From a virus (Duplodnaviria > Caudoviricetes), in the IMG/VR virus record IMGVR_UViG_3300025645_000102, positions 1 to 52,368 of that record: DNA of 52,368 nucleotides; one strand, given 5' to 3'. Numbering within the stretch: position 1 is the first letter of the stretch; every line of letters begins with the position of its first letter. A program made the translations under genes and the position numbers. Of the stretch, positions 1,320 through 33,602 are shown in pieces. The notes beneath the pieces are model-generated. The model saw only the letters and a list, made by a program, of their open reading frames with translations. It made no database searches and was not told where the DNA came from.

Positions 1320-1324
1320 AGATA

Positions 1325-1690
1325 CTTAGATTGAGATTACAGAGTAATTTCTTGTTTAAGACTTCGGCGCAAATCCAAGAGCCTTTTATTAGGTGTAGCG
1401 TAGGCCGAGCCTACAGAACTTCAGAGGTTGATTAACCTCTCCTGACACAAAGAAACGTACAGCGGGAGCTTGCGCAGGGCATGTGTCGGAAACATAATAC
1501 CCACGATCAGGGTACTAACCGTGGATGCATTGTAATGATGTAAGCCTAGGGTGTTGGCATCGTAAGATGTTTTAGCTAGCTATTCTAGCGCGAAAATCGG
1601 CCACCCACTGTACCGAGGTACGACAAAAAGGTGGTTTAAGACAGCGCACACGGCCTGGAAGGGTATACTCCAAAGGTGTAGGTACCAAAA
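1325..1690 (+). ncRNA. candidate structured non-coding RNA or long structured leader, family unknown
   Basis: No ORF in the track; starts right after a promoter; 49% GC over 1381-1680 by hand count; many stem-loops with G-U pairs on the + strand and a GUAA tetraloop. Confidence 0.55.
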
Positions 1691-1723
1691 AATCAGTAAC
1701 AAAAAATCAAACAGGAATAAACA

Positions 1724-2092
1724 ATGTATAACTTAATCGTGGTGCGAAAGCCCAAACATCTAAGCTACTCAACAGAGGGACTGACCTCGCTAGATATGGA
1801 TATTTATCTTACTCTAGAAGGATTTGAGTTAGTTCAGGACGCTGTCCGTAATATAATGGTGCAGTCGTACGAACCTTACAACCCTGAGTTAGATGACCTG
1901 GACGTAGATAATTTCATACTACCAGAAGAAGAAGACTGCCGAGTAGTCAGACAGTACATAGAAAATGTGTTGTCCTTGATTATAGGATGTGTTAGAGAAT
2001 TTGGAGCAGTCCAAGTAAACTTAGACACATTAAGCGTCTCCAACAAAATAGATCCGTCTATAGAATCCTCAATAACCTTTATAGAGGTTTAG
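1724..2092 (+). CDS. acidic hypothetical protein (122 aa)
   Basis: AGGA SD; stop codon 1 nt before the obp start. Confidence 0.8.
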   Translation: MYNLIVVRKPKHLSYSTEGLTSLDMDIYLTLEGFELVQDAVRNIMVQSYEPYNPELDDLDVDNFILPEEEDCRVVRQYIENVLSLIIGCVREFGAVQVNLDTLSVSNKIDPSIESSITFIEV

Positions 2093-2093
2093 A

Positions 2094-4841
2094 ATGACTA
2101 TTTCAGTACTACATGCTTGTGACTACAACGATAGAAATAAGCACGGTGAGTTTTTTAGAATAACTAGAGAAAACACCTTTTTAACTAAACGAATAGATAA
2201 GCAAGGCAATAAACTTAAAGCCAACTTCCCAAAGAAGTTTAAGCTAGGAGATTTTTATACCCCAGATTCGTTAACGGAATTAAAGCCTATACTAGAGCTG
2301 CTTGGCGAAGACCCCAAAGCTCTAATAATACGGCACCAATATATCAACGCTAAAATGGGAGATACAGTATTTAGACAGGCTAAATTCGTAAAGAATGAAG
2401 CTAGTAGAATAATCTGTATGGACATTGATGAGCTGGATTTACCAATGGATTTGGAACCTACGGACATAGTAGGACAGGGACTATACGTGTGTAATATTTT
2501 ACATAAATGTAATCCTAATATATTTCCAGACGACATGGGCTTTATTGCTCAGGGATCATCGAGCGCAGGACTTAGCAGGACTATAAAGCTACACTTATGG
2601 TTAGAGAACTATGATTGTGTAGACCAGTCTCAACTAAAGAACCTATTCTATAGTGTCAATAGCACTTTTAAATCTAGGTTCGAAACAAATATAAACTTAA
2701 TAGACGTATCACTATATAACGATATACAGGCGCACTATACCGCTTATCCTATGTTTGAGGAGACTTTGTCAGACCCATTAAAAGGTAAGCGTACGAGATA
2801 TAATTATGGGAATCGTTGCTATGTCCCCGAGGATTACGTTAGTTATGTAAAACCAGCAGTTACTACCGACCTTGAGCGTACAACATATTTGAATGCTATC
2901 ACGGGTAGTACCCTTCAAACTCTTGAACTATCTAATAGGATTAATGCCTTGAAAGATTGGGGCTCTTCTACTTCTGGTTTACGTAAAGCTGTTATTGCTA
3001 CATACCATACTGCTGTACAAACCCAGTATTGCTTAGATTTACTAAGAAAAGATATAACAAATGTATTGGATAGTAAACGACCAGGTGAGCTAGAAAACTA
3101 TATTTCACAGGGTATAGCTAGTGCTGTATCTAATGTTAAAGCTTGCTCTGTTCGCGAGGTACCTCTAAAATGTTTGGGTCTCCCACTGAAAACTATTAGT
3201 GGTGGTGGTGAAGAAAAGTTTCTAAATATGGGAGAATACCCACCACCAGATTCTGTAGTATTCTTAAAAGCTACGCTAGGGACGGGGAAAACTTATAACA
3301 TAGAGCAGTGGTTAAAGTCTGGACACATCGAGGGTAGATTCCTAGCTTTGACAGATACTTCGGCTTTAGTAGAATCAAACACGAAAAGATTCAACCCTGC
3401 ACGAGACTTTAGAAATCCCAAAGGAAGATTAGACTTTGCTACAGGTAAGGTTCAACGTCTTTCTGGCACGTTGCACTCTCTTTATAAAATCAAAGACTTA
3501 ACTAATAGCTTTGATTTTTTGTTTATAGATGAGGCAGATTCTCTGATGAATAATTTATTGTTCGCTACAATAATAAGCGAAGAAAAGCGAGTTATCATAA
3601 TAGAAGTTCTACGGGAGTTGTTGCAAAATACAGATAGAGTTATAATAAGTGATGGGGATATATCGGAAGAAACAGTAGCCCAATATGTAGAGTTAATGCA
3701 AGGTTCTAGGAATCTATACAGAGTATCGCACAAACGTCAAAATCTAAAGGGCGTTCCTGCGTACAAACATGTTAAAGAGAGTTCTTTATGGGGAGCTTTG
3801 CAGGGACACTTAGAGCTAGGAGATAAATGCTTGTTAGTTTCCGATTCTTCGCCAAAAGCTATCAATGAGTACTTGACTGCATTCAATAGATTGTTGCCTA
3901 GCAAAGTTATAAAGGTAGTTCATTCTTCATCTACTGACGATCATGATATTCGTGATATTATAGATAATACTACCGTAGCTTTGCGTAGACAAGAGGTAGA
4001 CGCATTAATATGTAGTCCTAGTATTACTAATGGGGTAGACTTTAATTATTTTGATACTGTGTTTATCTTGACCACATCTGAGAATCACACACCAAATATG
4101 AGGTTCCAGGCTATGATGCGAGAACGCTCACCTGAGACTATTCATTATTATTTTGGTCTTATGAAACAGTTTATTACAGGTTTTTCTAGTGTGACAGTTG
4201 ATAAAGACTTCTTGCCCACAGCTAGGAAAGCTTATGCAGCTAGGAGGGAGCGAGAGTATAAAACTTATGTAGCCACGTTTAATTACTATTTGGTAGAGTC
4301 TGGTGCTACAGTAGAAGTTATAGACGTTCCTTACGATAATCCCAAAGAAGCTGTAGATAAAGAAGAATACTTGATAGAAAGAATAATGGCTATATTAAAC
4401 GCCAAAGAAAGTGTATCGCAAGCACGACATAACGATGCCTATGAAATGAAAGAGAAGATAAAATTCTTTTATGATGTAGACGAGTTAGCTTGGGATGATG
4501 TGGCGTGTTTTCTTAAAGAAAAACCAGATAAATGCGCTGAATACTTTCATAAGTTATATAAATCTTTTGGAAAAGAAATTCTGTCGGCTAGCGTAGAAAA
4601 CCTACTGATTGCTTTGAGAAGTAGACCGAATGAGTTTTACTTGGCTGTAGGTGGTTCTTTGCAGGGAATAAACTCTCAAAGTGGGATCAATAAAACTAAA
4701 CAGATACTTAGTAGGTGTGGCGTTAAGAAAACATCTTCTAATTTACTAGAATGGTATACAAAGTACTGTGAGTACACCGATGGAATAATTTTACCACCAG
4801 AACTTAGAGAATCAACGGAGACAATTAATGAATTACTTTAA
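2094..4841 (+). CDS. obp: replication origin-binding protein (UL9-like SF2 helicase) with N-terminal AEP-like domain
   Basis: Walker A ATLGTGKT, FIDEAD, CSPSITNGVDF, QAMMRER; 915 aa; T5 position upstream of D2. Confidence 0.85.
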   Translation: MTISVLHACDYNDRNKHGEFFRITRENTFLTKRIDKQGNKLKANFPKKFKLGDFYTPDSLTELKPILELLGEDPKALIIRHQYINAKMGDTVFRQAKFVKNEASRIICMDIDELDLPMDLEPTDIVGQGLYVCNILHKCNPNIFPDDMGFIAQGSSSAGLSRTIKLHLWLENYDCVDQSQLKNLFYSVNSTFKSRFETNINLIDVSLYNDIQAHYTAYPMFEETLSDPLKGKRTRYNYGNRCYVPEDYVSYVKPAVTTDLERTTYLNAITGSTLQTLELSNRINALKDWGSSTSGLRKAVIATYHTAVQTQYCLDLLRKDITNVLDSKRPGELENYISQGIASAVSNVKACSVREVPLKCLGLPLKTISGGGEEKFLNMGEYPPPDSVVFLKATLGTGKTYNIEQWLKSGHIEGRFLALTDTSALVESNTKRFNPARDFRNPKGRLDFATGKVQRLSGTLHSLYKIKDLTNSFDFLFIDEADSLMNNLLFATIISEEKRVIIIEVLRELLQNTDRVIISDGDISEETVAQYVELMQGSRNLYRVSHKRQNLKGVPAYKHVKESSLWGALQGHLELGDKCLLVSDSSPKAINEYLTAFNRLLPSKVIKVVHSSSTDDHDIRDIIDNTTVALRRQEVDALICSPSITNGVDFNYFDTVFILTTSENHTPNMRFQAMMRERSPETIHYYFGLMKQFITGFSSVTVDKDFLPTARKAYAARREREYKTYVATFNYYLVESGATVEVIDVPYDNPKEAVDKEEYLIERIMAILNAKESVSQARHNDAYEMKEKIKFFYDVDELAWDDVACFLKEKPDKCAEYFHKLYKSFGKEILSASVENLLIALRSRPNEFYLAVGGSLQGINSQSGINKTKQILSRCGVKKTSSNLLEWYTKYCEYTDGIILPPELRESTETINELL

Positions 4842-5037
4842 AACCCCACCAAGACCGATACCAAAAACGGAGGGTGCTTTTCATAATCTATCTCGAATAT
4901 TGCCGCACTACATAGCGGAAAATTTTGAGTATTTTGAACTGCTTCCCGTCCCTCGCAAACTACACAGTAACTATGAGGCTTACATAGCTAATTTTAAGAA
5001 AAAAATAGCTTGCACAAAAGCTGAATTGTTGTTATAA
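4828..5037 (+). CDS. small hypothetical protein between obp and D2
   Basis: GGAG SD; overlaps the obp end; fills the gap to the next promoter. Confidence 0.6.
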   Translation: MNYFKTPPRPIPKTEGAFHNLSRILPHYIAENFEYFELLPVPRKLHSNYEAYIANFKKKIACTKAELLL

Positions 5038-5038
5038 T
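5010..5038 (+). promoter_or_regulatory. sigma70-type promoter for D2
   Basis: A-tract, TTGCAC (5010-5015), 17 nt, TATAAT (5033-5038). Confidence 0.8.
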
Positions 5039-5069
5039 ATGTTTTTAGAAATTGAGAAAAGAGATAAAC

Positions 5070-5741
5070 ATGGCACGTAGAAAGAATATACCAGAAGATG
5101 TAATACTAAGAGCAAAGCTATGGCTTGACGGTGGTGGCACTAAGAAAGGTGCTTGCGATATATTAGGAGTATCCAACAATAAAACAATGGAAGCTTTGCT
5201 TGAGGAGTATGATAATAAACTTCGTGTAGATAAAGAAATTCGCGCTAAAAAGCGTAAACAAGCGGTTACTTCTCAAGAACTCGCTGAGATAATCTCAGAC
5301 CATTTGAGTGGCTATTCTATGCAAGAATTATCAGAGATCTACTATAGAAGTGCTGATACCATAAAGCATCATCTTGTCAAAAATGGTGCGCTAATTAGAA
5401 CTCATACTAAGATTGATCAACTAAGTCCCCCGCTTCTTCCAGAAGAGTGTATGTCTGATTCTTTTGATATAGGACAGTTTGTTTGGTCGGCTAAATACAA
5501 TTGCATAGCAAAAGTTATGTCGTTGTTTGGCAATGCTTATCGTATCAGAGTTTGGGGAGAGGGTATTATGCAGTACGCATATCAAGCATCTTGCGAACTA
5601 GGCAATCTAGCTCATTTAGAAGCTATCGGAGTACATCTAGGTAAACTAAGCCCAGAAATCCTAAGCACTGAAGAGATAAAACATCTAATCAATAAAACGC
5701 TGCTAGAGGCTAATAAGAAAACTAAGGCTAACAAAGATTAA
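5070..5741 (+). CDS. D2: T5 D2-like DNA-binding protein
   Basis: GGTKKGACDILGVSNN HTH-like motif; synteny; start taken at ATG 5070 (MARRK) rather than TTG 5052. Confidence 0.75.
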   Translation: MARRKNIPEDVILRAKLWLDGGGTKKGACDILGVSNNKTMEALLEEYDNKLRVDKEIRAKKRKQAVTSQELAEIISDHLSGYSMQELSEIYYRSADTIKHHLVKNGALIRTHTKIDQLSPPLLPEECMSDSFDIGQFVWSAKYNCIAKVMSLFGNAYRIRVWGEGIMQYAYQASCELGNLAHLEAIGVHLGKLSPEILSTEEIKHLINKTLLEANKKTKANKD

Positions 5742-5749
5742 AAAACAAA

Positions 5750-5778
5750 TTGACAATAAGTCAAAATCAACGTATAAT
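5750..5778 (+). promoter_or_regulatory. consensus sigma70 promoter for the D3 operon
   Basis: TTGACA (5750-5755), 17 nt, TATAAT (5773-5778). Confidence 0.9.
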
Positions 5779-6474: not shown

Positions 6475-6790
6475 TAATGACTCCTACAAAGGGTTTACCG
6501 ATGTAGCAGAACATATTATCATAGAAAACGAAGCGAAAGGTATACAGTATAGATTTACTATTTCTACTTTTAGAGATAAAACTTATATGGGTATACGTGA
6601 GTGGTATATGAATTTTGAAGGAGAGTATGCCCCGTCAAAAAACGGAGTGACTCTACCTTATAGTTTACATACTACATCCAGGTTGTATAATGCACTAAAA
6701 AGTACACTTAGTACTGCTGAAGTGCTTGACGAAGTTATAGAAGAGGTTAGGAATGCTACAAATAGCCAAACAGTTGAAATATTGGAGTGA
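6467..6790 (+). CDS. PC4/p15-family ssDNA-binding protein
   Basis: STFRDKTYMGIREWY...PSKNGVTL matches the PC4 pattern; T5 position before the ligase. Confidence 0.75.
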   Translation: MSDNDSYKGFTDVAEHIIIENEAKGIQYRFTISTFRDKTYMGIREWYMNFEGEYAPSKNGVTLPYSLHTTSRLYNALKSTLSTAEVLDEVIEEVRNATNSQTVEILE

Positions 6791-7706
6791 GCAGTACTAT
6801 AATGGTACTCCTGAGATTACTAATGAAGAGTATGACGCAGTAGAACAGATTCATGGACAAATGATCCTAGGTCTGGGCGATGTGCCACATGCTTATCGTA
6901 TGTTTTCTTTAAAAAAGCACTACGACAAAGATGGTACTCCACCTGTTTCAGGTAACTTAGTAGCATCCGTAAAACTGGACGGAGCAGCCGTAGCACTTAC
7001 TTACGTCAAAGGTATTCTAGTTCGTGCACTTACACGCGGTGACGGTATCAAGGGTGCTTGTATTACTAGAAACGCTAAGCTTTTACGTGGTGTTCCTCAT
7101 AAGTTAGAAACCGATGAGCCTTTATTACAAATAACTGGAGAAGTTGTAGCTTTATCTACTGTTGATAATAGCAGAAATTATGCTAGTGGTGCGCTAAAGC
7201 AACTGAATGAAATATCCTTTATTCAACGCAGAGACGCCGGTAGTATGAGATTTATAGCTTATAATGCTCAAGCTAGATGTAACATTTGGGGTTTAGAAGA
7301 TACTTATACTAAAGATCTAGAAACTCTGATCAATCTTGGTTTTGATGTTGTAACTTCTGACTTAGGTGAGTATCCAACCGACGGCACTGTGCTTAGGCTA
7401 GACAGCAACTCTGTTTTCAATCATATGGGTTTTACAGATAAGTTTCCACGAGGTGCATATGCCCACAAGGAAGAGCAAGAATATGTGACTACTACTCTTA
7501 TATCAGTTGAGTGGAATACTGGAAAATCTGGCAAAGTAACTCCAATCGCTATACTTGAGCCTGTTCTTATAGGAGAAGCCAATGTAAGTCGGGCTACCCT
7601 TAATAATATAGAATACATTGAAGCCCTAAATCTAGAGATAGGTTGTACGGTAAAAGTCATTAGAGCGGGTGAGATAATCCCCTCTATTATCGGAAGACTG
7701 GATTGA
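6753..7706 (+). CDS. ligA: NAD+-dependent DNA ligase subunit A (adenylation + OB fold)
   Basis: YYNGTPEITNEEYD, KLDG, LTRGDG, RNYASG, TDGTV, RATLNN, RAGEIIP. Confidence 0.92.
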   Translation: MLQIAKQLKYWSEQYYNGTPEITNEEYDAVEQIHGQMILGLGDVPHAYRMFSLKKHYDKDGTPPVSGNLVASVKLDGAAVALTYVKGILVRALTRGDGIKGACITRNAKLLRGVPHKLETDEPLLQITGEVVALSTVDNSRNYASGALKQLNEISFIQRRDAGSMRFIAYNAQARCNIWGLEDTYTKDLETLINLGFDVVTSDLGEYPTDGTVLRLDSNSVFNHMGFTDKFPRGAYAHKEEQEYVTTTLISVEWNTGKSGKVTPIAILEPVLIGEANVSRATLNNIEYIEALNLEIGCTVKVIRAGEIIPSIIGRLD

Positions 7707-7768: not shown

Positions 7769-7791
7769 AGATTCAGAAATTGAGGAAAGAG

Positions 7792-8559
7792 ATGAAAATA
7801 ATAGCTCCGACACAGTGTCCTTCTTGTGGATCTGACCTAACAAGAGTAAATGCACAGTTGTTTTGTTTAAACACTAAAGAGTGTGTTGCACAGTATTCAA
7901 AGAAGTTGCAAAACTTTTGTAAAAAATTAAAGATAAAAGGTTTTGGTGCGTCTACTTTAGACAAGCTAAAGCTATCAAATTTTAATGACTTAATAAAATT
8001 AACAGCTAGTGATTTAGAAGCTAATGGCCTCTCAGCACATATGGCTACAAAGTTAGTAGAAGTTGTTAAAAACAGACTAGATTTAGGAATTTCTCCTAAT
8101 GACTTTTTAGCTGCTTGTTCAATTCCTCTAATTGGGGATGGGGCAATGCGAAAACTAAACTTCGACTCTATAGCGAATATTACATATGATATGTGCAAAA
8201 AGCAGGGTCTCGGGAACATAGCAGCATCTAACTTAGTACTATGGATTGACACAGAGTGGGAAGATTACAAAGCTTTCTGGGAAGTACATTTTTCTAAAGT
8301 ACTTCCTAAGACAGCCCCCTCTGATAGCGTACTACCTACCGTATGTATTACAGGTAAACTTACAGATTTTAACAACAGAACCGCAGCAGCAGATTACTTA
8401 TCTTCTCTAGGTTTCCAAATTAAGTCTGGCGTCACAAAACAAGTAAAATATCTAATAAGCGAAGATGGGAATACTTCTTCATCTTCATATAAAAAAGCCG
8501 TAGGTTATGGATTGACTATAACCACAATAAAAATTCTAGAGGAAAAATATGACAAATAA
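7792..8559 (+). CDS. ligB: NAD+-dependent DNA ligase subunit B (Zn finger, HhH, BRCT)
   Basis: PTQCPSCGS...LFCLNTKEC, IKGFG, IPLIG, VCITG...GVTKQVKYLI; start at ATG 7792 after GAGG. Confidence 0.9.
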   Translation: MKIIAPTQCPSCGSDLTRVNAQLFCLNTKECVAQYSKKLQNFCKKLKIKGFGASTLDKLKLSNFNDLIKLTASDLEANGLSAHMATKLVEVVKNRLDLGISPNDFLAACSIPLIGDGAMRKLNFDSIANITYDMCKKQGLGNIAASNLVLWIDTEWEDYKAFWEVHFSKVLPKTAPSDSVLPTVCITGKLTDFNNRTAAADYLSSLGFQIKSGVTKQVKYLISEDGNTSSSSYKKAVGYGLTITTIKILEEKYDK

Positions 8560-9293: not shown

Positions 9294-9320
9294 AAGGGTG
9301 GCACTTCGCCGCCCTTTTTT
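9294..9320 (+). terminator. rho-independent terminator
   Basis: AAGGGTGGC-ACTTC-GCCGCCCTT followed by a T-run. Confidence 0.85.
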
Positions 9321-10762: not shown

Positions 10763-11631
10763 CAGAAGTAGAAAAATTATTAACTGAAAAAGAGGTAACG
10801 TTTTTCTCGAAAGGGAAAGACTTATTAGTTACATGCTTTAACACAGAGCATGACGACGAAAACCCCTCTATGAGAATAAGTAGAGAAACCGGAGCATATC
10901 ATTGCTTCGGTTGTGGTTATAAAGGAAATGTATTTACTAGGTTTAACCGATATAGAAATATATTTTCTGCTAGAATTACTGCAATAAAAGAATCTATTAC
11001 AGATCTACGGATGGCATCTTGGGCGGGGTTTACTCTACCTACAGATGCTTTTTTTATGTATGAACCTTACAGAGACATACCAGCAGATGTTATTAAAAAA
11101 TTCGAAGCATTTAAAACAGACAAAATAGGGATGGAAGGTAGGATAGTATTCCCTATAAAAGATAATAGAGAAGTTACCGTAGGTTTTCAAGGTAGATTTA
11201 TAAACTCTAAAATTAGCCCTAAATATTTAGCTTACCCTGCGGGAGTGTCTTTCCCCTGGTACCCTAGCCCACCTAGAATTACGCCACTCGGCAACTCCAT
11301 TGTGTTAGTAGAAGGATTAATGGACGCATTATTTTTACACGGAAAAGGTATAACAAATGCCGTCAGTATTTTTGGCACTAAAAGTGTTACATACGATACT
11401 ATACTAGAAAAAATAACCCCCTTCTTACTGATGGGAATAGATACAGTATACTTATTATTAGACGGGGACAACGCAGGTCGCAGTGCCTCCACTAACATTG
11501 CAAAAATGCTTAAACAACAAACAGATGTAATAGTTGAAGAGTTGCCTTTAGAAGATGGGGAAGACCCTGCGACACTAACCGATGAGCACTTAATTAGTAT
11601 AAGAAAGTATTTGACAAAAGATGGAATATAA
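10759..11631 (+). CDS. pri: DnaG-type DNA primase
   Basis: CHC2 zinc finger (C..EH.D..PS...HCFGC), TOPRIM LVEGLMD and DGDNAG. Confidence 0.92.
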   Translation: MTEVEKLLTEKEVTFFSKGKDLLVTCFNTEHDDENPSMRISRETGAYHCFGCGYKGNVFTRFNRYRNIFSARITAIKESITDLRMASWAGFTLPTDAFFMYEPYRDIPADVIKKFEAFKTDKIGMEGRIVFPIKDNREVTVGFQGRFINSKISPKYLAYPAGVSFPWYPSPPRITPLGNSIVLVEGLMDALFLHGKGITNAVSIFGTKSVTYDTILEKITPFLLMGIDTVYLLLDGDNAGRSASTNIAKMLKQQTDVIVEELPLEDGEDPATLTDEHLISIRKYLTKDGI

Positions 11632-11639
11632 AGTATAAT
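11611..11639 (+). promoter_or_regulatory. consensus sigma70 promoter for the polymerase
   Basis: TTGACA (11611-11616), 17 nt, TATAAT (11634-11639). Confidence 0.88.
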
Positions 11640-15935: not shown

Positions 15936-15964
15936 TTGACAAAAACGTAAAATTCTTGTATAAT
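15936..15964 (+). promoter_or_regulatory. consensus sigma70 promoter, second of a tandem pair
   Basis: TTGACA (15936-15941), 17 nt, TATAAT (15959-15964). Confidence 0.88.
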
Positions 15965-30800: not shown

Positions 30801-33602
30801 GAACTTACCATTTGTAGTACTTACAGCACCTGTACCAAACCAAAATGGAAGAGCTGCCGCACCATTTAAAACTACTCTAGGTACTTCTGTACTGGCAGAT
30901 GTTTGTATTGTTCCACCTGTTATGTTTGATCCAGTTATAGTAGAAGCACTTAATGTCCCACTAAATGAACCACTAGCCCCATCTAATGCTCCGCCGAAAC
31001 TGCTGGTACCATCAATAGTTAGCCCTTTAGCAAAAATATTGCCAGCATTGTTACCATAGAACTTACCATTTGTAGTATTTACATTACCTGTACCAAACCA
31101 AAATGGAAGAGCTGCCGTACCATTTAAAACTACTCTAGGTATTTCTGTACTGGCAGATGTTTGTATTGTTCCACCTGTTATGTTTGATCCAGTTATAGTC
31201 GCGGCAGACACAGTATCTGAGAAAGTACCAGAAGAACCTGTAATATCGCCTTTAACTACTAGACCGGCGCTAGTGTATTCCATGTACTGGGCTGCTCCTG
31301 CAGCTCCTAACCTAACAGCTCCTTGAGTTAGCGAGGTTACAACAACATTATTGCTGTTATACATGAATAAGCCTTTAGATGTGCCAGAAGTACCAAGCCT
31401 TATAATATCGTCTCCATCAGCAGTTTGTACCAGATAGCTCGCATCATTCTGAATTAACCAGTCGCCATTTTCATACTCAACGTCACCGTCTATAACTAAT
31501 TTGTCACCATTTTTAGCCCAAAAACCATAGTCTCCCGGCCCCCAAACCTCATCAGCTACTCCTGAATTTTTAGGTAAATTGTGGAGATAACCCATAACGA
31601 CTTTCTCAACATTGGTATCAAAAACACTTATGCGGTTTTTAGTAGAGTTAAGCTCTATTCTAGCACCAGTATCAGCAGATTTTAGTAAAGTTTCGCCTAT
31701 TGACCAGCCTCCGATAGTTCCTGATTCTGCTGATAATGCACCACCAAAAACAAAATCTTCGGTCTCTGTACTGTACTCAAAAGCTACAGAGAAATCTCCA
31801 GGACGCACAAAACGTATTTTATCCCCTATAAAGTCTAAGGTAGATAATGTCCCATCAGAAGAGCCTTTTACTCCTGCAATCCTGCCGTTAACATCTGCTA
31901 CTAAATAAAACTGAGCCTCTAAGTCTCCTACTGCGTCTTCCACAGCTGTTAATGTTAGACTAGATGCTGCATCCCAGCCAGCGTCTCCTGTAATTTCAGC
32001 CCGTAGATCTGTGATGGCTTCCTGCCTAGCACCATTCTCAGCATTAACTCCATTTCTTGCTGCCCATAAAGTAAGACTACTGCCTATTGCATCTGTACTC
32101 TCTCCTGTTATTTCTGCTTGTAGTGTTGTACTTGCGGTTGTTATATCCGCCTCTAGATCGCTAACTGCTTCGTTTAGTGCCGTTACTGTAGCCTTATTAG
32201 TTTCCAGCCCACTTACAGCAGCCGTAAGGGTAATGTCAGAAGTAGCTCTAGCTAAGGTTTCGGTTGCTAGAGTTGAGTCAAGCGCTACTACAAGGGCATT
32301 AACATCTTCAAACTGAGACTGTACCGCTACCTGCGTTGCAGCACTAGCGCTTGCGTTTGTAGATACTGTACTGGAGAGGGTGTCGATACTGCCTTCGGCA
32401 GTGTCTATCCTAGTATTCAATGCTGTGGCTAGATTTGCTCTAGCTTCGGTTTCAGTAGATAGAGCAGTATCTATCCTAGATATACTAGATTCTGTATCAC
32501 CTACTCTAGTACTTAACAACCCTGCTTGTGTTGCTCTAGCAGTACTTTCAGTTACTACAGCTTCATTAACTAAAATAATATCTGCTTCACTAACAGCAAT
32601 ATCGCTTTCATTCTCTGTAAGTCTAGCATTTATTTGTTCGACTTGAGTAGACCTAGCTAGTGTTTCTGTGGCTAGGGCGTCTCGCACATTAATTATATTA
32701 GCCTCTGAGTCGCCTATCCGAGCCCCTACTTCAATAGTTTCAATAGCCCTAGCTTGGGTTTCAGTTAATAATGTTTCTTGGGTAATCCTAATATCTGCAA
32801 AATTTTGTACGTCTTTTGTAATAAAATTTTGCGACCTAGTATTTAAACTTATTAAATCTTCTAGTATTTCGTCTGTAGTATTTAATAATGTAGCTTGCGT
32901 ACGTGTTATGTCAGTAAAATCTACGTTTATATCAATAACGTATTCTAATATTTCGTAATTAGTAAGAAAAGTAGGCTCTTGGGCTTCTACAACACCAGTA
33001 CTAAAAGTTTTAAAACTAAATAACCTAAAGTTATATATACCCGTTTTGATAGGCATACTTAATACTTTGCCTGTAGCTCCAGTAAAAAGCGTAGTCCAAG
33101 GGCCGTCTTCCAGCTCTGCGTCCTGTACTTCTAGTAGTATAGAGCTAACATTAGGTTCTTCTTTTGTGAAGGTAATATCTACTCCTACCACTGATCCGGG
33201 AGAGGTAACAGAACTTGTTCTAACAATAGATTCTATTACCATAGGACTAGCCGTAGTCACTGTGGGTAAATTAGATATATTTAGTAAGCTATTGACGCCT
33301 TGATATTGTGCGTTTAAAAGAAGTTCGTTTGAGCTAACAAACGTATCTACAAAAGCTGAAGATATATCATACTCAGTACCCACAAGTAAATCAACTACTG
33401 TGGTATGGTTGAGGCCGGTGTAGGGGTTTAAAGTTTTAACGGCGTCTTCTGCAAGACCTTCCGTTAACTTAACCCATGTAACCACCCCCGACAGGTCTAA
33501 GTCTTCGGGAGCGTTGTGGACAAGAAGTACGCTATTAAAACCTACTTCTACATCCACTACCATAGCTTTCGGTATGGCATTAGTAAAAACGTTAACTGTC
33601 AT
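27888..33602 (-). CDS. central tail fibre/spike in the pb4 position, 1904 aa
   Basis: Directly after pb3; FNIII-like N-terminus, coiled coil, repeated beta modules, C-terminal PFTGTH...NSVGEG...GDLITSS...GKGMKQ...IYMCG chaperone-like domain. Confidence 0.75.
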   Translation of the reverse strand: MTVNVFTNAIPKAMVVDVEVGFNSVLLVHNAPEDLDLSGVVTWVKLTEGLAEDAVKTLNPYTGLNHTTVVDLLVGTEYDISSAFVDTFVSSNELLLNAQYQGVNSLLNISNLPTVTTASPMVIESIVRTSSVTSPGSVVGVDITFTKEEPNVSSILLEVQDAELEDGPWTTLFTGATGKVLSMPIKTGIYNFRLFSFKTFSTGVVEAQEPTFLTNYEILEYVIDINVDFTDITRTQATLLNTTDEILEDLISLNTRSQNFITKDVQNFADIRITQETLLTETQARAIETIEVGARIGDSEANIINVRDALATETLARSTQVEQINARLTENESDIAVSEADIILVNEAVVTESTARATQAGLLSTRVGDTESSISRIDTALSTETEARANLATALNTRIDTAEGSIDTLSSTVSTNASASAATQVAVQSQFEDVNALVVALDSTLATETLARATSDITLTAAVSGLETNKATVTALNEAVSDLEADITTASTTLQAEITGESTDAIGSSLTLWAARNGVNAENGARQEAITDLRAEITGDAGWDAASSLTLTAVEDAVGDLEAQFYLVADVNGRIAGVKGSSDGTLSTLDFIGDKIRFVRPGDFSVAFEYSTETEDFVFGGALSAESGTIGGWSIGETLLKSADTGARIELNSTKNRISVFDTNVEKVVMGYLHNLPKNSGVADEVWGPGDYGFWAKNGDKLVIDGDVEYENGDWLIQNDASYLVQTADGDDIIRLGTSGTSKGLFMYNSNNVVVTSLTQGAVRLGAAGAAQYMEYTSAGLVVKGDITGSSGTFSDTVSAATITGSNITGGTIQTSASTEIPRVVLNGTAALPFWFGTGNVNTTNGKFYGNNAGNIFAKGLTIDGTSSFGGALDGASGSFSGTLSASTITGSNITGGTIQTSASTEVPRVVLNGAAALPFWFGTGAVSTTNGKFYGNNAGNIFAKGLTIDGTSSFSGTLSGANITGTTGTFSSRVAVSSTNGYLFDMRTTSYRGFSLWYGLAADSADRTVATTLFGVDHGGTVYAKNMEISGDSTFGGSITSGSTITGANITGGIIQTAGSNLIPRVVLNGVATIPFWFGTGAVETDNAKFYGNSEGSLFAKGLTIDGNSSFTGTVTAASGTIGGWKLDATLLKSADTGARVELNSTKNRISIFDTNVEKVVMGYLQGLPKNPKDDEEPADVQNWTAGDYGFWAAAGDKLVIDGDVEYENGDWLIQNDASYLVQTAAGQDIIRMGTSSGTKGLFMYNSDSVETARMTGSTLKIGTGDTYMEYTSTGLVVKGDITGSSGTFSDNVSGATITGGTITGGTITGGIVQTSASTEIPRVVLNGTAALPFWFGTGNVNTTNGKFYGNNAGNIFAKGLTIDGDSSFSGTLSGANISGTTGTFSSRVAVNSTNGYLIDIRPDSYMGFSLWYGLATHSASQRSVANTLFGVTNAGTVYAKNIQISGTSTFSGALSGATGSFSGTLSASTITGSNITGGIIQTAGSTQIPRVVLNGTAALPFWFGTGNVSTTNGRFYGNSAGNIFAKGLTIDGTSSFSGTLSGADITGTTGTFSSRVAVSSTNSYLFDIRTTSYRGFNLWYGLAADSAQRTIATTLFGVNNAGTVYAKNIQISGTSTFSGALSGASGSFSGTLSGADITGASGAFSGTLSIGNRYNVNTNGDTTYYLGSSAVGASGRLTIGETGFDFRDGTGVSRLNILPTSGRLAIVPINGLPQAISIGGGGGNGAGQGVSAYGTTNAFYSRGGGYGPFTGTHDALILNDTTIEPGDIVFDSSFIASSSVSDTITEIAPTITANTKSVVGIFVSASNTDVGDLPAAMTESLGYEDTHQRAVINSVGEGMLNVCGQGGNIEAGDLITSSNLQGKGMKQADNLVRNYTVAKARQDVTFDSPSEIKQIAVIYMCG
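28740..31720 (-). repeat. interleaved long direct repeats (modules A x2, B x5, C x3) inside the central fibre gene
   Basis: Near-identical DNA blocks, e.g. CCAAACCAAAATGGAA x5, CTGCTACTCTACTTGA x3, GCGGTTTTTAGTAGAGTTAAGCTC x2. Confidence 0.9.

Follow-up and report, generated by a model that had tools for sequence, protein, structure and literature searches.

What does the only long gap between the genes of a distant T5-like phage contain? The stretch of DNA analysed here, called the window, comes from an uncultured virus and is 52,368 nt long (IMG/VR record IMGVR_UViG_3300025645_000102; 46% complete by CheckV); its gene content is that of a distant T5-like phage. Between the gene of a deoxynucleoside monophosphate kinase (dNMP kinase, positions 675–1277) and a 122-aa open reading frame (ORF, 1724–2092), which abuts the replication origin binding protein gene obp, there is a stretch for which the initial annotation, made from the letters alone, had proposed an undescribed, promoter-driven structured RNA on the + strand. 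This proposal was supported by comparison with relatives. The element, of about 365 nt (1325–1690, + strand, as are all the features of the fold given below), was matched by nhmmer and cmsearch in eight distinct sequences, counting the window; its helices are kept by compensatory changes, its members share no ORF, and no model of Rfam 15 matches it at the gathering score. The gap itself (1278–1723, 446 nt) had been singled out as the only large one in the early block, and it proved to be the sole stretch of at least 200 nt without an ORF of 60 aa or more, on either strand, in the whole window.

The homologues were gathered from loci that encode relatives of obp and from scans for the invariant motifs of the RNA, in viral and metagenome contigs. 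They form four subgroups: A (the window, L060, and L002), B (L005, L003, and L071), C (L006), and D (L178). Nucleotide identity over the element is 73–82% within subgroup A and approximately 50% between A and B, and every record that carries the RNA carries a single copy.

The comparison of folding energy with shuffled sequences, suggested by the initial annotation, gave a marginal result: z was −2.00 on the + strand, where 6 of 100 shuffles folded as well, and −1.98 on the − strand (2 of 100). Considering that this did not tell the strands apart, comparative evidence was used instead. RNAalifold, applied to the first four sequences, gave 52 pairs, 28 of them with compensatory changes. Twelve helices, named Ha to Hl, were then derived from six sequences and scored on a structure-blind MAFFT alignment (A4). 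The paired fraction was 95.2% of 336 cells, against 78.8% in shuffled alignments and 40–48% when the partner strand was slid by 1–3 columns; compensatory changes were seen in 31 of 58 pairs, against 17.4 in shuffles and 5–8 with the slid partner. None of 500 shuffles reached the observed value of either measure.

Two points weigh against taking these scores at face value. The helices were derived from the same six sequences that were scored, and the eight sequences come from few lineages, with few independent substitution events, so that the shuffle counts are not probabilities. The better test of the fold is given by L006 and L178, which were found later and had no part in deriving it, and in both of which Ha, He, Hf, Hh, and Hi persist although their base pairs differ. 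Over all eight sequences, Ha to Hi were paired in 88.3% of cells, against 69.8% in shuffles, with 26 of 41 pairs compensatory and none of 500 shuffles reaching these values, in a model-fitted alignment that leans towards structure and in which Hi is mis-registered in subgroup B. The comparison of relatives favours a fold conserved through double changes.

The strand and the nature of the element could be read from the same cells. The initial annotation had argued that G-U mismatches on the + strand favoured an RNA over DNA cruciforms, and among the 336 cells there were 45 G-U against 6 A-C, with 95.2% canonical pairs on the + strand and 83.6% on the − strand. This excess of G-U indicates the + strand, and RNA rather than a DNA cruciform; the promoter and the flanking genes point the same way. 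Were the element instead a DNA cruciform, a protein-binding region, or an unrecognised small protein gene, the equal folding-energy z on both strands and the few blocks conserved as sequence would fit; the G-U bias would not, nor would helices kept by double changes while the sequences drift to about 50% identity. A coding role is also at odds with the lack of any ORF shared among the members, with insertions and deletions that do not come in threes, and with the substitutions between the window and L060, which fall 22/22/24 by codon phase and show no periodicity. We consider an explanation by anything but an RNA-level element hardly credible, and we put the probability that 1325–1690 is a genuine, selected RNA structure on the + strand at a little over nine in ten.

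All the stems listed by the initial annotation are present in the window at the positions given there; when they were compared with the relatives, about a third had to be redrawn. The 5′ domain begins with a terminal hairpin, which is followed by a conserved GCGCAAAUCC-like block and then by a small hairpin that varies among the members. The terminal hairpin (1325–1360), one of the stems that the relatives support, was read from the sequences as an outer CTTAGA/TTTAAG around GAGATTAC/GTAATTTC. Its outer stem is AUAGUU/AACUAU in L005 and UAGUU/AACUA in L003, the inner stems are kept via G-U changes, and the hairpin is degenerate in L002. The block that follows, GCGCAAATCC at 1367–1376, is single-stranded in our model and appears in subgroups A, B, C, and D in a form like GCGC(A/G)AAAU(C/G)(C/G); no pairing partner was identified for it, and it was misplaced by MAFFT. 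The small hairpin, GCCT/AGGT (1381–1394), also read from the sequences, becomes GCCC/GGGT in L060, ACAUAUC/GGUAUGU in L003, GCCUAUC/GUUAGGU in L071, CCGUC/GACGG in L006, and CCUCC/GGAGG in L178. Next to it, Ha pairs GTAG (1395–1398) with CTAC (1411–1414) across a conserved 12-nt loop (91.7% paired in six sequences and 93.8% in eight; 2 of 4 pairs compensatory). This outer register is the one favoured by the relatives, in place of the GTAGGC/GCCTAC stem annotated before.

The rest of the molecule is a multi-branch core closed by the long-range helix Hb, CTTC (1419–1422) with GAAG (1658–1661), which is 95.8% paired and has 2 of 4 pairs compensatory, by UA to CG changes. Within it are found the hairpin Hc, the helix Hd, a central domain in which He encloses Hf and Hg/Hh, the hairpin Hi, and a 3′ arm formed by Hj, an internal loop, Hk, and Hl. 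Hc (AGAGGTT/AACCTCT, 1423–1440) stood as it had been annotated, with 95.2% of cells paired and 5 of 7 pairs compensatory. Hd, CTGACA (1442–1447) with TGTCGG (1484–1489), encloses a variable insert; it is 100% paired in six sequences, 5 of its 6 pairs being compensatory. The central domain is closed by He, AACAT (1491–1495) with GTGTT (1551–1555), paired in 100% of cells in six sequences and 97.5% in eight, where 3 of 5 pairs are compensatory; it replaces the earlier ATACCC/GGGTGT. In the same way, CCACG/CGTGG gave way to the hairpin Hf, TACCC (1498–1502) with GGGTA (1510–1514), which is 100% paired in six sequences and has 4 of 5 pairs compensatory in eight (UACCC/GGGUA in the window, GUACC/GGUAC in L006, and CGUCU/GGACG in L178). 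Hg (1522–1525 with 1544–1547, about 91% paired) carries the hairpin Hh (1527–1532 with 1536–1540), which shows three or four pair types per position; the Hh loop is GUAAU, GUAAC, or GUAGU in six sequences, GUAAUU in L006, and UUAAUUG in L178.

Hi is the hairpin GGCATC-GTAA-GATGTT (1556–1571), likewise retained from the initial annotation. It is 100% paired in six sequences with 3 of 5 pairs compensatory (GGCAU/AUGUU in the window, GGCGC/GCGUU in L006, GGCAC/GUGUU in L178), and its GNRA tetraloop is found in all eight members as GUAA (three), GAAA (three), or GCAA (two). The central domain, with the GNRA-capped Hi, is common to the four subgroups. In the 3′ arm, Hj joins CGC (1589–1591) to GCG (1644–1646) with a middle pair that switches from GC to CG between subgroups; this GCG lies in the sequence to which the long-range pairing TGCGC/GCGCA had been assigned, and that pairing found no support among the relatives. 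Neither did the second long-range pairing, GTACAGCGGG/CCCACTGTAC. Hk, CCACC (1601–1605) with GGTGG (1630–1634), has 4 of 5 pairs compensatory, and it corresponds to the annotated GGCCACC/GGTGGTT, which the relatives uphold together with the inner hairpin Hl, GTAC (1610–1613) with GTAC (1618–1621). Between Hj and Hk there is an internal loop, GAAAATCGG (1592–1600) facing TTTAAGACA (1635–1643), the sequences of which are invariant in subgroups A and B; this loop (GAAAAUCGG / UUUAAGACA) is absent from L006 and L178. In L006 the 3′ arm, traced by eye, has very short joints where the loop would be, and for L178 the entire arm is passed over in the model alignment, where 76 model positions correspond to 7 nt.

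Some further pairings have a narrower distribution. The annotated GCTAG/CTAGC stem holds in the window's own subgroup and not elsewhere, and a 3′ terminal hairpin (1662–1686), seen by RNAalifold in the three sequences of subgroup A, is absent from B. A helix between the stretch that follows Hi and the one that precedes the 3′ strand of Hb was traced by eye in subgroups B, C, and D only, with no common register; a helix joining the 5′ and 3′ ends, also traced by eye, has no common register across subgroups either. A pseudoknot between the Ha loop (AGGCC, 1402–1406) and GGCCT (1652–1656) is possible but not established: it is 69.4% paired against 60.8% in shuffles, 22 of 500 of which reach it, and a slide of +1 does equally well.

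How would such an RNA be made? The promoter reported before the gap is present, with TTGACA (1291–1296), a 17-nt spacer, and TATTAT (1314–1319) on the + strand; this sigma-70-type site scores 11 of 12 and is the top promoter-like site within 600–2600. It is preceded by an A/T-rich tract (1268–1290, +) that resembles an UP element and may act as one; its run of A is invariant in an alignment of four sequences (A1), and the layout is the same in L006 and L178. A TTGAC and a TATAAT-like hexamer at constant distance, with the A/T tract before them, were found in all eight members. Transcription would start near 1325. The GC content, given before as 49% over 1381–1680, was confirmed at 0.49 against 0.389 for the whole window, and among the 39 bins of 300 nt that span the first 6 kb, 1351–1650 ranks first (0.48); GC falls to 0.085 in the promoter spacer (1278–1324) and to 0.24 in the tail (1691–1723). 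No terminator-like site was found on the + strand in 1320–1724. In L006, a GC-rich hairpin followed by a T-rich run (10–45) lies shortly before the promoter of the RNA; it resembles an intrinsic terminator and would shield that promoter from transcription arriving from upstream.

The 3′ side of the RNA is an A-rich linker (1687–1723, +) with two copies of the 9-nt direct repeat AAAAAATCA that start 14 nt apart (1687 and 1701), a Shine-Dalgarno-like AGGA (1713–1716), and the ATG at 1724. In L002 (about 1213–1240) both copies are changed together to AAAACAAT, with about equal spacing. The repeat could be a protein site or a ribosome-standby site. The linker tails before the start codons are A-rich and differ among subgroups, and in subgroups A, C, and D and in L005 the conserved structure stops 25–40 nt short of the ribosome-binding site of the next ORF.

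The genes around the RNA were compared among the members. In the window, the dNMP kinase gene (+ strand) belongs to phrog_139 (E 4e-37), the 122-aa ORF (+) matched no PHROG or Pfam family, and obp (2094–4841, +) encodes a protein of 915 aa that belongs to phrog_3712 (E 2e-218). The dNMP kinase gene is 5′ of the RNA in the window and in L002, L003, L005, L060, and L071. The 5′ neighbour in L178 is a PhoH-like gene on the opposite strand, and the RNA lies within the divergent intergenic region, and the contig of L006 ends before the 5′ gene. On the 3′ side, obp was found in seven of the eight members, the contig of L071 ending before it, within a non-coding stretch of its own. A small ORF of 110–122 aa lies between the RNA and obp in six members, with homologues of the 122-aa ORF in L002 and L005. 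In L003 its place is taken by serine hydroxymethyltransferase (SHMT; PF00464, E 1e-145) and about 220 extra non-coding nucleotides. A search of the complete genome G004, which is the record of L003, did not find the small ORF; it gave nothing in three other records either and so had no positive control. Taking into account the SHMT gene of L003 and the result in G004, the small ORF was rejected as an obligatory partner of the RNA.

Subgroup B has a second non-coding stretch after the RNA (L003 4640–4855; L071 2176–2446), longer and richer in GC in L071. It starts with a hairpin-like block common to both, CCCCTGTTTGACACAGTAACCTG(C/T)GGGG, and Rfam gave no match for the stretch.

Contigs identical to the region were found in three freshwater metatranscriptome runs, X12, X13, and X16, at a depth of 2–5 that is similar to that of neighbouring genes and is a poor measure of expression that cannot rank genes. 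These contigs show presence only, not level, strand, or ends, and carry-over of DNA is possible. Over the element, the RNA libraries gave 1351–1533 and 1591–1923 (X12), 1380–1533 and 1539–1746 (X13), and 1362–1512. The contigs 1539–1746 and 1591–1923, together with a further one of X13 (1728–1903), lead from the 3′ part of the element into the 122-aa ORF. The RNA runs do not cover 1109–1350, and no transcription start was drawn from that.

From these observations a mechanism can be proposed. Host sigma-70 RNA polymerase would start at the near-consensus early promoter (1291–1319), so that the RNA would be transcribed first, and transcription would continue into the 122-aa ORF and obp. Since there is no terminator in between, transcription is expected to run on, which would make the RNA the 5′ leader of the transcript of the initiator. 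The folded leader might then act in cis and, through a small molecule or a protein of the phage or the host that binds to it, set the amount, stability, or translation of the obp message. A promoter directly 5′ in all eight members, the constant linkage to obp, and the lack of a terminator-like site argue for it, as do the distance of 25–40 nt that separates the structure from the next ribosome-binding site in most members and the RNA-library contigs that lead from the element into the ORF. Moreover, the other promoters of the window with a 12/12 score (5750, 11611, and 15936) have no such leader, which makes it specific to the obp unit. A cis-acting leader is the most likely of the mechanisms considered, and we favour it tentatively, at somewhat less than even odds.

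Several observations count against this leader. No expression platform was found, that is, neither a terminator/antiterminator pair nor a conserved helix over the ribosome-binding site. The gene right after the RNA is not constant, being mostly the small ORF and, in L003, SHMT behind the extra non-coding sequence. With about 365 nt, at least 12 helices, and a conserved GNRA loop, the RNA is larger and more ornate than most cis-regulators and would better fit a ribozyme or a ribonucleoprotein RNA. Subgroups C and D lack the internal loop that does not vary in A and B, and whatever this loop binds is therefore not universal. Finally, one contig each of the runs X12 and X13 stops at position 1533 of the conserved GUAAU loop, a point that a DNA contig (268–1853) crosses; this is a weak hint of processing, and the end at 1533/1534 could be a processing site, a stop of reverse transcription, or an accident of assembly.

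These same points, namely the missing platform, the variable next gene, the size and ornateness, and the shared contig end, are what give some weight to a stable RNA that acts in trans, possibly self-cleaving, otherwise catalytic, or part of a ribonucleoprotein, cut from the 5′ end of the obp transcript; elsewhere it might, for instance, divert a host defence as a decoy or provide a scaffold. Such a role would suit the long-range closing helix and the GNRA loop, present in all members with varying sequence as is typical of tertiary docking, and it would explain why the RNA is retained whatever gene comes next. However, there is neither a terminator nor a recognisable processing site on the 3′ side, contigs of the RNA libraries join the element to the ORF, and their depth over the element is like that of the neighbours and not far higher. 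Rfam gave no ribozyme match, and the family is restricted to one position beside one gene. A trans-acting product is thus the next candidate after the leader, and a doubtful one.

The proximity to obp suggests another possibility, in which the promoter would fire into the replication origin or beside it, and the RNA would be an origin transcript that forms a persistent hybrid, serves as a primer, or recruits the obp protein, resembling ColE1 RNA II or the R-loop origins of T4. It lies just 5′ of the initiator gene in the seven members with a long enough contig (7/7). In G004, a complete genome of 106,179 nt with direct terminal repeats, the cumulative GC-skew minimum falls in the 32–33 kb bin, where a leftward block that includes the RNA and the dNMP kinase gene diverges from a rightward one (about 32.6–33.1 kb), and the core of the RNA (31,568–31,853) is about 1 kb from the point of divergence. 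The divergent intergenic location of the L178 copy, the strong promoter, and, in subgroup A, the A/T-rich tail with its 9-nt direct repeat point in the same direction. On the other hand, GC skew tracks the direction of transcription in these genomes, so that the minimum in G004 is confounded by the strand switch. No family of iterons was found around the locus, with only short two-copy matches in G004 31.4–33.4 kb, and a G-rich run such as would stabilise an R-loop is missing (GC skew only 0.08 over 1351–1650). The phage also encodes a DnaG-like primase and a DnaB-like helicase, and the dense covariation across 12 helices exceeds the known needs of a primer. We regard an origin transcript as rather unlikely. 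We would say the same of a bolder idea, in which the RNA would represent a novel class of large functional RNAs connected with the replication of phage DNA: it might be a ribozyme or a ribonucleoprotein RNA that excises itself from the transcript of the initiator near U1533/A1534, in the GUAAU loop, or an origin RNA that starts replication of the T5 type jointly with the origin-binding helicase.

It was also considered that the RNA could modify RNA polymerase right after initiation and let it read through terminators further downstream, as the processive antitermination RNAs of the put (HK022) or EAR type do. It is promoter-proximal, co-transcribed, independent of the next gene, and devoid of a classical expression platform, as would be expected of them. 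Antitermination has little support here: there is no convincing terminator in 1724–5750, the first strong one being at 9294–9316, and the replication block has its further 12/12 promoters. Known put and EAR elements are also several times smaller, and an RNA of this type seems very improbable.

The replication block itself has some features of its own. Downstream of obp there are genes for a helicase, a DNA-binding protein, a split NAD-dependent ligase, a D5-like regulator, a DnaB-like helicase, a primase, and a DNA polymerase. The ligase is divided into two separate ORFs, 6753–7706 (phrog_3359) and 7780–8559 (phrog_3498), and is annotated likewise in KookSpook and similar T5-like phages. The 12/12 promoters TTGACA-17-TATAAT are located at 5750–5778, 11611–11639, and 15936–15964, in short intergenic spacers of the block, and a strong terminator-like hairpin (9294–9316) follows the gene of the D5-like regulator. 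This layout is similar to that of the strong early T5 promoters.

Members of the family were found only in a small group of aquatic T5-like phages, all of them uncultured. The obp protein of the window is only 34–36% identical to those of Demerecviridae in GenBank; blastn with the gap sequence gave no match among GenBank phages, in which the identity of the nearest obp proteins does not exceed 36%. When whole records were searched with the RNA models, no copy was found in G001 and G002, complete genomes of a neighbouring clade with 48% identical obp, or in Vibrio phage Ceto and Escherichia phage KookSpook. The pattern scan of bacterial and archaeal genomes gave 17 matches, none genuine. Those of viral sequences gave 3 genuine matches of 20 (copies of known loci), 4 of 15 and 4 of 17 (none new), and 1 of 6 (the contig of L006). 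The scan of metagenomes gave 94 stretches with three genuine ones: L060, L071, and L068, which is the same as L003. Sixty-nine of the 94 share one common 58-nt span in gut-metagenome contigs and are not the RNA. About 15 are a repeat, AAAATCGG...TTTTTGAGACAGTGTACA, that also occurs in inverted copies (L110) and was dropped as a likely transposon end; the similarity of L085 and L124 is limited to this motif. The repeat, of about 60 nt in direct and inverted copies (L110 about 560–940, L058, L065, L076, L085, L124, and other metagenome contigs), looks like transposon terminal repeats that matched the search pattern by chance.

A different long leader was observed in Vibrio phage Ceto (L043 4112–4916; MG649966.1 61039–61843), where a TTGACA...TATACT promoter is followed by 805 nt without annotated genes, directly 5′ of obp. 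Rfam gave no match for this stretch, and it is not similar to the RNA family described here. It occurs in 52 Vibrio phage records, of which 43 match 80% or more of its length, at 92–95% identity, copies too similar for a covariation test; Hades, Pontus, and two pVp-1 records match approximately the first 160 nt only, and KIT04 only 20–159. Long non-coding leaders 5′ of obp may be more widespread among T5-like phages.

Large RNAs in which covariation maintains many helices are uncommon, and earlier ones proved to be ribozymes, riboswitches, or cores of ribonucleoproteins. The present one has a clean anatomy, with a promoter, about 365 nt, a universal GNRA loop, and an internal loop invariant in two subgroups, and a fixed genomic partner in obp. 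An RNA that controlled or joined the initiation of replication in T5-type phages would offer a handle on a poorly understood step of their biology. If it were only a stabilising leader, it would still be a new RNA family worth adding to Rfam. The family is rare, with eight distinct sequences and none from a cultured phage, which restricts both the statistics and, for now, the scope for experiments.

By comparison with known RNAs, the structured RNA at 1325–1690 is a new family that belongs to none of those catalogued. The 4227 models of Rfam 15 were applied at the gathering threshold of each family and then up to E = 10. At the gathering score there were no matches in the whole window or in six related loci. 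At E ≤ 10, positions 1200–1800 of the window gave only SNORA48, on the − strand (1663–1782), with 15.4 bits against a threshold of 50, and L005, L071, L002, and L060 gave none. ARAGORN found no transfer RNA (tRNA) or transfer-messenger RNA (tmRNA) gene in the window, and both programs agree with the initial annotation, which could match the element to no tRNA, tmRNA, or group I intron; our literature search found no description of such an RNA. The 'retron anti-defence' factor Rad of T5 was set aside as irrelevant, being a 189-aa protein and not an RNA (bioRxiv 10.1101/2023.03.15.532788).

Group I introns are alike in their 250–400 nt, many helices, and GNRA tetraloops, and are common in the DNA-metabolism regions of phages. 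The present RNA differs in that it interrupts no gene, its 5′ side being a promoter after a complete dNMP kinase gene and its 3′ side the A-rich linker with a ribosome-binding site, and the group I intron models of Rfam, with the P3–P9 core, had no hit at E ≤ 10 in five members. ColE1 RNA II and the origin R-loop transcripts of T4 are promoter-driven, folded non-coding transcripts beside replication initiation functions, which is the likeness; there is no similarity of sequence or structure, and the phage has its own primase. With riboswitches, T-boxes, and protein-binding leaders the RNA shares its place between a promoter and a coding region, a junction of several helices, a GNRA loop, and an internal loop with unpaired nucleotides that do not vary. 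A conserved, covarying, aptamer-like fold directly behind the promoter, as in a riboswitch, was seen in 8/8 members; the platform of a riboswitch was not, and, unlike in riboswitch and T-box leaders, the next gene varies among members and Rfam has no match.

Candidate structured RNAs have been described from the same source of data, IMG/VR, also by covariation in viral contigs (Fremin, Bhatt and Kyrpides 2023, PMC10690425). According to the main text of that study, they average 67 nt, and some are upstream of replication genes, for example gp32; the words kinase, helicase, and primase are absent from that text, and a sub-hairpin of the present RNA may be in the supplementary lists. In general form the RNA resembles ROOL and GOLLD, large and elaborate non-coding RNAs that phages often carry (bioRxiv 10.1101/2024.12.08.627333). 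Unlike them, the RNA described here matches no Rfam 15 model, is shorter, has a fixed position as the putative 5′ leader of the obp transcript, and is represented by only eight distinct examples in one clade of aquatic T5-like phages. It is like them in having no known biochemical function and no obvious cis-regulatory role, and in being a phage-borne RNA of several hundred nucleotides with many covarying helices.

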